Part shown: piece by piece, positions 17,635 to 19,299 of the stretch | Layout: every line of letters begins with the position of its first letter | Position numbering within the stretch: the stretch's first letter is position 1 | NCBI GenBank assembly: GCA_036498325.1 | Contig: DASYFR010000038.1 | Coordinates: 17,679-81,678, forward strand | Direction of reading: 5' to 3' | Length of the DNA: 64,000 nucleotides | Origin: Solirubrobacteraceae bacterium | GTDB lineage: Bacteria; Actinomycetota; Thermoleophilia; Solirubrobacterales; Solirubrobacteraceae | Notes under the pieces: model-generated | What the model was told of the DNA's origin: nothing | Database searches by the model: none | The model's input: only the letters and a program-made list of their open reading frames with translations | Made by a program: the position numbers and the translations under genes

Positions 17635-19299
17635 ATGACCGCGAACCTGTTCGACTATTTCGAGGAACTCGCCATCGAGAGCGGCACGCCGGCTCGATGG
17701 GCCGCGCGGGCGCCGCGCCGCCCCCAGCGCGACTACGACATCAAGCTCATCCCGCGCGCCGCCGACTGGCGCGGTGACGCCGATTCTGTGGCGGCCCTGC
17801 AGCGGATCGAGCGCGAGCCATGGGCCGCGAGCGTAATCCGCGACGGCGACGCCGTCAGGCTGCGGCTCGCCGACGAGTGGGTCGAGCTCGCCGGCGCGGC
17901 GCTGGAGGCCGGGGGCAGCTGCGAGGCGGAGCTCTCCGACCTCGCGCAGGGACAGCGGCTCTCCGTGCAGTTCTGGGACGCCAACGCGACGAAGGCGCTG
18001 CACGTCGGGCATCTACGCAACCTCGCGATCGGCAACGCGCTCGCCTCGGCGCTCGCGCAGGCGGGCGCTCAGGTCGAGCGGCGCAGCCGCATCTCCGACA
18101 TGGGCCGGGCGATGGGCGAGGCGATCGCCGGGGTTGTGCAGAGCGGCCGCGCCGCTCAGGGGTGGTCGCATGGCGAGGAGAAGAGCGACCACTTCGTGGG
18201 CATGTGCTACGCCGAGTACGTCGCCGCGACCGGCTCGCTCGCCGCGGGCCAGGCCGAGCAGGCCGAGGACTCGCTCTCGCGCGAGACGCTGGTGCACGGC
18301 GACGCGGCCGACGAGGTGATCAAGCGGGTGCTGCGGGGCGAGCGCGAGGCGGTCGAGCTCTGGTACAAGACACGCGCCTGGGTGATCGCCGGGCAGCGCA
18401 AGACGCTCGCGTGGCTGGGGATCGCGTTCGACCGCGTGCTGTTCGAGTCCGACTACCTCGCCGAGACGGCCGAGTTGACCGAGTTGGGCGTGCGCAGCGG
18501 GGTCCTGCGCCGCCGCGAGGACGGCGTGATCGTGTACGAGACCGGCCTGCAGGAGCTCGCGGAGCTGGCGCTGGTGCGTGCCGACGGGCTCTCTACGCAG
18601 CACATGCGCTCGCTCACCTACGCGCTGACGGGGCCCGAGCTCGACGGCATGAGCTCGCTGCAGGTGACCGGCTCGGAGTGGGTATCGCACGTGACGAGCA
18701 TCCGCAAGCTCGCAGCCGAGCTGAGGCCGGAGCTCAACGGCGGCTTTCACCCCGGCCGCAGCATCTTCCACGGGATGGTCTCCAGCCGCGAGCGTGCGGT
18801 GAGCTCCAGCGCGGGCGCGCTCCTGATCGACGAGCTCCTCGAATGGCTCGACGCGCAGATCGACGCCGATCCACAGCGACGGGAGGCGCGCCGCGGGCAT
18901 CCCCGCCCCGAACGCATCGCCGCGCAGATCGTGCTCGGCTACTTCCTGCCCCATGCGCCCGCGCCGGACATGGACTTCGACCCGGACAGGCTGCTGTGCG
19001 AGCGGGAGAGCCTGGGATGGGACCTCGTCCGCGCGCGTGCGCGCCACAGCCGCGGAACTGCCCGCGAGCAGCGGCCGGCGGAGGACCGCGACTATCGCTT
19101 CGCGGTCCTCCAGTCGGAGCTGTACAGGCGCTATCTGCGCCTGGCGGCGCAACGTCTCGACGTCAGGCCGCTCGCGCACTACCTCAAGCACCTCTCGCAG
19201 TGGTACGTCGAGCGCGAGCGCAGCGAAGCCGTCGAACGCGTCGTGCACACCCTGCTCGACCGCAGCGCCCGCGGACTCGGTCTCGAGGCCGGCTCGTGA
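17635..19299 (+). CDS. Arginyl-tRNA synthetase paralogue with altered amino-acid pocket
   Basis: ANATKALHVGHLRN HIGH motif, ISDMG, KSDHFVG, LGIAFD..FESDY, VRADG, HGMV, C-terminal DALR-like helices. Arg-binding and KMSKS residues are not conserved. Confidence 0.85.
   Translation: MTANLFDYFEELAIESGTPARWAARAPRRPQRDYDIKLIPRAADWRGDADSVAALQRIEREPWAASVIRDGDAVRLRLADEWVELAGAALEAGGSCEAELSDLAQGQRLSVQFWDANATKALHVGHLRNLAIGNALASALAQAGAQVERRSRISDMGRAMGEAIAGVVQSGRAAQGWSHGEEKSDHFVGMCYAEYVAATGSLAAGQAEQAEDSLSRETLVHGDAADEVIKRVLRGEREAVELWYKTRAWVIAGQRKTLAWLGIAFDRVLFESDYLAETAELTELGVRSGVLRRREDGVIVYETGLQELAELALVRADGLSTQHMRSLTYALTGPELDGMSSLQVTGSEWVSHVTSIRKLAAELRPELNGGFHPGRSIFHGMVSSRERAVSSSAGALLIDELLEWLDAQIDADPQRREARRGHPRPERIAAQIVLGYFLPHAPAPDMDFDPDRLLCERESLGWDLVRARARHSRGTAREQRPAEDRDYRFAVLQSELYRRYLRLAAQRLDVRPLAHYLKHLSQWYVERERSEAVERVVHTLLDRSARGLGLEAGS

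Follow-up and report, generated by a model that had tools for sequence, protein, structure and literature searches.

An ArgRS-like synthetase with altered arginine-binding motifs, a private tRNA(UAA) and a chorismate-directed operon share a conserved cassette in Solirubrobacterales

To our knowledge, selenocysteine and pyrrolysine are the only natural additions to the code of 20 amino acids, and pyrrolysine alone comes as a portable cassette. In the pylT-pylS-pylBCD unit, a dedicated tRNA, its synthetase and the genes for an unusual amino acid lie together in one transferable unit of patchy distribution. A comparable unit is found in the 64,000-nucleotide stretch of contig DASYFR010000038.1 analysed here (the window), from the Solirubrobacteraceae assembly GCA_036498325.1, where a private tRNA, a paralogue of arginyl-tRNA synthetase (ArgRS) and biosynthetic genes headed by a fused aminodeoxychorismate synthase (PabAB) form one conserved unit (Table 1). 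There are, however, significant differences between the two. PylRS belongs to class II, whereas the enzyme here is a class-I synthetase from ArgRS; the chemistry is unrelated, being chorismate-derived here; and a rare sense codon (UUA, ACU or AGA) takes the place of the stop codon. Unlike pyl, this cassette has additional tailoring enzymes, and no in-frame codon conserved as a target was found among its genes. On the evidence below, which is drawn from sequence and predicted structure, we lean towards a working class-I synthetase of ArgRS descent that would no longer read arginine and would load the operon's own amino acid on the private tRNA.

Three further systems are close enough for comparison. 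Canonical ArgRS (TIGR00456, EC 6.1.1.19) shares with the present protein the three-domain fold, the HIGH motif, the lysine before HIGH, the asparagine that binds the alpha-amine and, probably, the tRNA-dependent activation. Unlike canonical ArgRS, the present protein lies far below the family cut-off, has three guanidinium ligands replaced, is accompanied by a tRNA without C35 (and, by our reading, without A20), and coexists with argS. In Streptomyces and relatives, the paralogue ProRSx reportedly works with an anomalous tRNAPro(A) in deliberate mistranslation, as Vargas-Rodriguez et al. are said to have described in 2021. Both cases involve an aminoacyl-tRNA synthetase paralogue of Actinobacteria with an extra tRNA whose body and anticodon are mismatched and whose anticodon varies by lineage. 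However, ProRSx keeps the proline specificity, whereas here the pocket is rebuilt, with the parental triad replaced, and a biosynthetic pathway is joined to the pair. MshC and the cupin/MetRS-like hydrazine synthetases likewise reuse a class-I scaffold in secondary metabolism, and some relatives of the present enzyme have N-hydroxylase and cupin neighbours as well. Such tRNA-independent ligases have no tRNA partner, and their anticodon-binding part is lost or changed; here, the private tRNA and the full domain are both conserved. In the literature, no paper describing such a tRNA/ArgRS-like pair or cassette was found, and PMC5388404 does not mention ArgRS.

The source stretch contains about 70% G+C. 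The open reading frame (ORF) spans 17530–19299, and its conserved start, an ATG at 17635, gives a protein of 554 aa, a length that more than 100 homologues have in common together with the N-terminus MxxNLFDYFE. Pfam recognises the HIGH region alone (PF00750, residues 104–169, 32 bits), and the NCBIfam argS model TIGR00456 gives 88.3 bits, below its curated cut-off of 261.65. The true argS of the genome, on a separate contig (G000:C22), reaches 395.6 bits with the same model, and BLASTP aligns just the HIGH region of the two proteins (39% identity over 101 aa). Because a genuine argS sits on another contig of the same genome, the ORF is a paralogue, as the earlier note held, and a housekeeping ArgRS identity for 17635–19299 is rejected. 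The mean column identity is 68% among 60 homologues, reflecting strong purifying selection.

The AlphaFold model of the protein has a predicted local distance difference test score (pLDDT) of 84.7 and a predicted template-modelling (TM) score of 0.88. The top 20 Foldseek matches are all ArgRS, superposed over the full length with TM scores of 0.63–0.70 over ~600 columns, and the sequence identity to solved ArgRS structures in these fold alignments is 14–20%. Both the three domains of the ArgRS fold and the HIGH motif are present, and the predicted architecture is whole, comprising the N-terminal tRNA-binding domain, the Rossmann core and an anticodon-binding domain of normal size. The C-terminal anticodon domain had been described as short; this does not hold, since the KMSKS position is followed by 162 aa here and by 172 in the true argS of the genome, and the superposition on ArgRS is full-length.

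Around the amino-acid pocket, each of the motifs to which the earlier note drew attention lies where it had been placed. In E. coli ArgRS, the guanidinium group is bound directly by three residues, D118, Y313 and D317 (PMC3956977). The HMMER alignment with yeast ArgRS (1bs2) pairs E148 with Q112, N153 with N117, K156 with K120, H159 and H162 with H123 and H126, and Y347 with Q322. The E. coli residues are presumably the counterparts of yeast E148, Y347 and D351, also from their motif position. The HMMER alignment stops at R350, paired with R325, and D351 falls one residue beyond its end, opposite S326. A gap-free MAFFT alignment with the genome's own argS gives the same equivalences, including S326 at the D351 position, and the pairing of D351 with S326 rests on the one-residue offset past the HMMER end and on the MAFFT alignment. 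By these alignments, all three guanidinium ligands are replaced, the acid (E/D) by Q112, the tyrosine by Q322 and the aspartate by S326, and the loss of Asp, Tyr and Glu claimed from a by-eye comparison is thereby borne out. The altered motifs are fixed over 60 homologues (54–91% identity) and have variants in ~100 family representatives, so the replacements are not due to chance. Simultaneously, the catalytic side of the pocket is retained. Among 40 diverse family members (27–59% identity), H123, G125, H126 and N117 are invariant, E348 and W349 are likewise invariant, and K120 is conserved in at least 90%. The intact HVGH had been taken as a sign that the ATP site is kept, and the family-wide conservation of the HIGH motif and Lys120 agrees with this.

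The private tRNA is located 28 nt upstream of the synthetase-like gene and scores 68.8 bits with the Rfam tRNA model. Its variable loop is short, so the body is not that of a tRNA-Leu despite the anticodon UAA; the private tRNA(UAA) is an extra one, because a normal long-arm tRNA-Leu(UAA) also exists in the genome. Compared with the genome's other tRNAs, it matches at best 55 of 73 positions (an ARAGORN 'tRNA-???'), and 52 in the best normal tRNA. A 97-nt 'tRNA-???' with a four-base anticodon (ggag) is called by ARAGORN at G000:C32:119427-119523 (-), either a false call or an unusual tRNA. Two sigma-70-like sites occur in the region, versus 0.1 expected from shuffles, one candidate promoter being located 5' of the tRNA, and the tRNA and the synthetase, which have co-evolved, are probably on one transcript.

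Partner tRNAs were recovered from nearly every related locus (n = 77), and their body is almost invariant. It consists of the acceptor stem GCACCAG/CUGGUGC with A73, the D-arm CCUU-AAUCGGUGA-AAGG and the T-arm CCGGG-UUCGAGC-CCCGG, and the anticodon stem varies through compensatory substitutions. In a 25-sequence alignment of the cloverleaf, 99% of the cells are paired and 13 of the 20 pairs have changes on both sides, which none of 500 shuffles equals. The anticodon loop is CUUAAAC or CUUAAAA in every UAA locus except one with a deletion. In one metagenome-assembled genome (MAG; L056:7894-7965), the anticodon loop of the private tRNA is one base short (CUUAAG), by decay or assembly error. The loci of Conexibacteraceae/Baekduia carry the anticodon AGU on the same tRNA body, and one subclade (L190) carries UCU. 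No codon of the genome is rarer than UUA (52 of 729,000 codons, 0.07 per 1000, more than 10 times below the next rarest; counted over 1835 ORFs, with most TTA in dubious 5' ORF extensions), and AGA and ACU are likewise rare. The partner anticodon (UAA, AGU, UCU) thus moves among rare sense codons. Identity as a tRNA-Arg depends on C35 and, in bacteria, on A20. The partner tRNA has neither, given its anticodon UAA and a D-loop (AAUCGGUGA) that we read as lacking A20.

Downstream of the synthetase, stop and start codons overlap along the chain of the ArgRS-like gene, PabAB, the GNAT gene, the AroQ-type mutase gene and the gene for a 209-aa protein, and the GTG start of PabAB overlaps the synthetase stop (GTGA). 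The AroQ-type protein may be a PapB-like 4-amino-4-deoxychorismate mutase. Neither Pfam nor the PDB gives a sequence match to the 209-aa protein. In its model (pLDDT 87), prephenate dehydratases (PDT) rank 3, 6 and 8 among many folds of the periplasmic-binding-protein type II class, and its N-terminal motif TLGPxGTCHE is, in our judgement, PDT/BacA-like. With moderate confidence, the model suggests a PDT/BacA-like protein. PDB sequence searches with the GNAT protein and the P450 returned no specific match.

Table 1. Features of the cassette and its surroundings in the window; locus counts refer to the best 79 related loci
Feature	Position	Strand	Basis or remark
Cytochrome P450, divergent	15892..17313	-	Beside the cassette in 56/79 loci, on either side
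Candidate sigma-70-like promoter TTGACT-18-TAGCAT, 5' of the tRNA	17428..17457	+	Consensus match only
Private class-I tRNA, 73 nt, anticodon UAA, discriminator A73, without encoded CCA	17534..17606	+	ARAGORN
ArgRS-like class-I synthetase paralogue, 554 aa	17635..19299	+	Profile, alignment and model evidence
QFWDAN, residues 112-117	17968..17985	+	Q112 in place of the first guanidinium-binding acid; alpha-amine ligand N117 retained
HVGH (HIGH motif), residues 123-126, Lys120 just 5'	18001..18012	+	Alignments
GLSTQHMRS, residues 318-326	18586..18612	+	Q322 for the guanidinium Tyr, S326 for the guanidinium Asp
GSEW, residues 346-349	18670..18681	+	Aligns with GADH of the genome's own argS
RAVSSSAG at the KMSKS position, residues 387-394	18793..18816	+	Low-confidence loop of the model
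Fused PabA-PabB (aminodeoxychorismate synthase)	19296..21455	+	79/79 loci
GNAT N-acetyltransferase	21452..21964	+	Start and stop overlap both neighbours; 72/79 loci
AroQ-type chorismate mutase-like protein	21961..22296	+	PF01817, 71 bits; 70/79 loci
209-aa protein, periplasmic-binding-protein type II fold, without ACT domain	22293..22922	+	49/79 loci

In the route proposed for this operon, chorismate would give 4-amino-4-deoxychorismate, which would be turned into 4-amino-4-deoxyprephenate and from there into a keto acid of the 4-amino (dihydro)aromatic type; a dihydro product would arise if a BacA-like decarboxylase acted on the 4-amino-4-deoxyprephenate. The synthetase would then adenylate an alpha-amino acid of the p-aminophenylalanine type, possibly in dihydro or N-acetyl form, and attach it as an ester to the private tRNA at its 3' end. 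A pathway-made substrate of this kind (p-aminophenylalanine or a dihydro analogue) had been suggested earlier, and the conserved, translationally coupled PabAB-mutase-PDT-like operon fits it. Like ArgRS, the enzyme would probably need its tRNA to activate the amino acid. In ArgRS, amino-acid activation requires tRNA (PMC2034488), and this requirement would explain why the tRNA gene travels with the enzyme gene.

Relatives of the enzyme occur in six of 121 sampled genomes of the taxonomic family (two of 51 genera); 400 other genomes sampled across the phylum have none. Scanning species-representative genomes with a pattern gives at least 586 relatives, of which the best 79 are used for all locus counts. 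These 79 loci all belong to MAGs of Solirubrobacterales or Conexibacteraceae (60–78% identity), and all known carriers are MAGs of uncultured organisms. The enzyme and PabAB stand together in 79 of 79 loci, and the tRNA, the enzyme, PabAB, the GNAT protein and the mutase co-occur in 70–79 of 79, with flanking genes that differ among the loci. The patchy presence and the constant gene set with differing flanks show that the cassette is accessory, self-contained and under selection. In six loci of Conexibacteraceae and Baekduia (L081, L082, L083, L085, L089 and L091), there are two ArgRS-like copies with 76% identity, one in the operon and one beside tRNA(AGU), and L091 contains two different tRNA(AGU) genes. 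In one MAG, a second, distant ArgRS-like paralogue (L046:1367-2929 (-), 36% identity) is located ~5 kb upstream of the cassette.

The composition of the cassette varies. Some variants insert an amidohydrolase of the histone-deacetylase type between the GNAT gene and the mutase, and in subclades of ~55% identity the operon gains a cupin, a PQQ-type propeller and a gene resembling flavin N-hydroxylases (PF13434). Two such loci (L189:13347-16297 and L190:14248-17366) contain a cupin, a flavoenzyme resembling Lys/Orn N-oxygenases and a P450, which in L189 is fused to chorismate mutase; the arrangement recalls N-N bond-forming systems. These additions bear on a different explanation, a tRNA-dependent ligase with a final acceptor other than the tRNA. 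The activated aminoacyl group would go to a hydroxylamine or amine supplied by the neighbouring enzymes, generating an ester, an amide or an N-N bond, and the tRNA would act only as an activation cofactor. An N-hydroxylase, a cupin and an aaRS-like enzyme together do recall hydrazine-forming systems, and the P450, the deacetylase and the propeller in the relatives' operons would suit such chemistry. However, the cassette of the present genome includes no N-hydroxylase, cupin or propeller; elsewhere in the genome, strong matches to PF13434 are absent, and the sole cupin homologue is on another contig. Furthermore, the known hydrazine synthetases lack the tRNA partner and the anticodon-binding domain, both of which are conserved here. 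We consider this explanation rather improbable.

Beyond these loci, 1.8 billion cluster representatives were searched exhaustively, and 194 clusters match at E <= 1e-30, all with full-length coverage and 27–59% identity. Their common motifs are x-F-(C/W)-(D/N)-(P/A)-N-A-T-K-A-L-H-V-G-H-L-R-N, R-x-D-G-F-P-T-(Q/E)-H-L-R, G-x-E-W and x-K-S-S. The positions of the first and third guanidinium ligands vary clade by clade, which looks like diversified specificity. Database names of the members are 'arginyl-tRNA synthetase' or 'hypothetical', and the ArgRS-like enzyme belongs to an undescribed family. Directly upstream of one distant member (~34% identity to P0165) lies a tRNA-like gene that is called as Gln(CUG) (L134:5612-5686), and the distant members of L115 and L119 have no adjacent tRNA.

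A metagenome pattern scan recovered mostly one sister clade (38% identity), represented by genus g41 and many metagenome contigs. In this clade, a tRNA(UCU) is always directly upstream of the synthetase-like gene, which is followed by two methyltransferases and a DdaF-like ATP-grasp ligase. An ABC-F protein beside the pair was considered as a resistance gene and rejected, as it is EttA, a housekeeping protein. Some of the partner tRNAs carry the same GCACCAG acceptor stem as the private tRNA, which indicates a common origin of the tRNA/synthetase pairs. The partner tRNA(UCU) is A20-less (L012–L014, corresponding to G041, G118 and G083, and L095–L140). In three g41 genomes (95–99% complete, one in a single contig), no further UCU tRNA came up with BLAST or with two pattern scans; the same scans did recover the canonical tRNA-Arg(UCU) in two control genomes. 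AGA is unusually frequent in the sister clade (4–7 per 1000 codons) and AAA almost absent (0.2–0.3 per 1000). A reassignment of AGA to lysine, suggested by these values and by the 20% of AGA sites that align with Lys, is rejected, because AGA swaps mainly with CGC and CGG in orthologous columns. A canonical argS is present in all these genomes. It seems, then, that the sister-clade partner tRNA acts in translation and bears arginine or something indistinguishable from it, and the pair may be a second, dedicated arginine system for AGA. If so, the pairs of this family are ribosome-competent in principle.

The sister clade also limits what can be drawn from the pocket. The change from acidic to neutral residues had been read as predicting a neutral or bulkier substrate; the arginine-specific ligands are indeed gone, but the loss of Tyr and Asp alone is insufficient to exclude arginine, since the sister clade lacks both and AGA still behaves as an Arg codon there. 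A rival explanation is that the enzyme remains an arginine enzyme with a rebuilt pocket. It would charge tRNA(UAA) with Arg, giving low-level Leu-to-Arg mistranslation at UUA or an Arg-tRNA pool, and the link to PabAB would be regulatory or accidental. In addition to the sister clade, where the A20-less tRNA is the only UCU tRNA found in the three genomes, the acidic residues D115 and E348 in the pocket region speak for such an enzyme. Compared with the sister clade, however, the present clade has lost further acids (D to Q/N/Y at 112 and D to S/A/L at 347) and has gained Trp114. Simultaneously, the anticodon of the private tRNA lacks C35, and the overlap-coupled PabAB-mutase operon, kept in at least 79 species, is hard to explain with a standard amino acid. 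A persisting arginine specificity thus appears improbable, slightly more so than the ligase.

A catalytically dead tRNA-binding protein, which would sense or sequester the private tRNA to regulate the operon, is very improbable. The KMSKS lysines are missing in this clade (VSSS), as the earlier note had pointed out, and the loop is of low model confidence. Their absence is not diagnostic, however: the family consensus is xKSS, many members retain the Lys, and in many genuine ArgRS enzymes the Lys before HIGH takes the place of absent KMSKS lysines. Moreover, HxGH, K120, N117, E348 and W349 are (nearly) invariant across the family, which speaks against a dead enzyme. A self-resistance copy of ArgRS against a cluster-made ArgRS inhibitor hardly deserves consideration, for although aaRS copies in gene clusters are a known resistance device, such copies retain the substrate ligands and a family-level score, and none of the three guanidinium ligands, a score of 88 against a cut-off of 262, an identity of 14–20% to solved ArgRS, a rebuilt pocket and a non-Arg partner tRNA are found here, in line with what had been argued before.

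For a synthetase that loads the operon's own amino acid, the charged private tRNA may have either of two fates. In the first, the amino acid would be delivered to the ribosome at the near-unused UUA codon, as in the pyl system. The pyl-like layout, the canonical tRNA elements, the strictly conserved anticodon loop and the apparent translational activity of the sister-clade tRNA point in this direction, and neither CDPS nor a Fem-type aa-tRNA transferase (FemAB) was found in the genome. We regard this fate as plausible, though short of what we expect. In the second, which we consider the probable one, the tRNA would serve as a carrier holding an intermediate for the enzymes that accompany the cassette in relatives, namely the P450, the acetylase/deacetylase, the N-oxygenase and the cupin. 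An anticodon for a rare codon would keep such a metabolic tRNA out of translation and so harmless. The P450, the acetylase/deacetylase, the N-hydroxylase, the cupin and the propeller exceed the needs of amino-acid synthesis, and no client codons were found, both of which suit a carrier. The boldest form of the ribosomal fate is a natural extension of the genetic code, in which a pair derived from ArgRS and tRNA-Arg(UCU) would insert a chorismate-made acid of the p-aminophenylalanine type at the near-unassigned UUA (ACU/AGA in sister lineages). We think this unlikely.

Several observations weigh against a synthetase for the operon's own amino acid, or against one of its two fates. The pocket is interpreted from alignments, not from coordinates, and family members may still use arginine, judging by the sister-clade tRNA(UCU) as the apparent sole decoder of AGA. 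The PDT-like assignment is moderate, with a TM score of ~0.5 and no sequence match, and the operon contains neither a PapC-type dehydrogenase nor an aminotransferase. Against ribosomal use, the cassette genes have no conserved or enriched TTA (20 in ~156,000 codons, scattered), and codon-usage counts give no raised TTA usage; programmed TTA recoding within the cassette is rejected for lack of a conserved TTA in its genes. Against carrier use, the cassette includes no known aa-tRNA-using enzyme.

Farther from the cassette lie MurD, a MurL-like epimerase, an acyl-CoA-dehydrogenase-like and a glutamine-synthetase-like gene, which have housekeeping or unrelated roles and are not kept beside it in the related loci. 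A folate-pathway reading of PabAB and the upstream 'Mur ligase' is rejected, since the ligase is MurD accompanied by the MurL-like epimerase and the flanks are not conserved. At 13123–15865 (-), the MurD-type ligase is followed by a homologue of MurL (UDP-MurNAc-L-Ala-L-Glu epimerase) with 417 bits, below the cut-off of 700 of the Xanthomonadales model. This arrangement suggests that peptidoglycan synthesis in this actinobacterium takes the route of adding L-Glu and then epimerising it. At 24851–27614 (+), the glutamine-synthetase-like gene is followed by an M20 peptidase-like gene, and these are likewise not conserved with the cassette.

New in this analysis are the mapping of the three Arg ligands on solved structures, the anticodon switches UAA/AGU/UCU on one tRNA body, the codon-usage figures and the extended operon variants. 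Equally new is the sister-clade partner tRNA as the sole apparent decoder of AGA, with AGA read as Arg. About 190 clusters labelled 'arginine--tRNA ligase' in databases are probably mis-annotated.

The cassette follows a logic like that of pyrrolysine, with unrelated components. Should the charged tRNA reach the ribosome, a rare sense codon would encode a new natural amino acid, the sense-codon counterpart of pyrrolysine. If it does not, the private tRNA would be a carrier for building small molecules, a role for which we know of no described example. Either way, the tRNA and its synthetase would be a candidate orthogonal pair for aromatic-amine amino acids.

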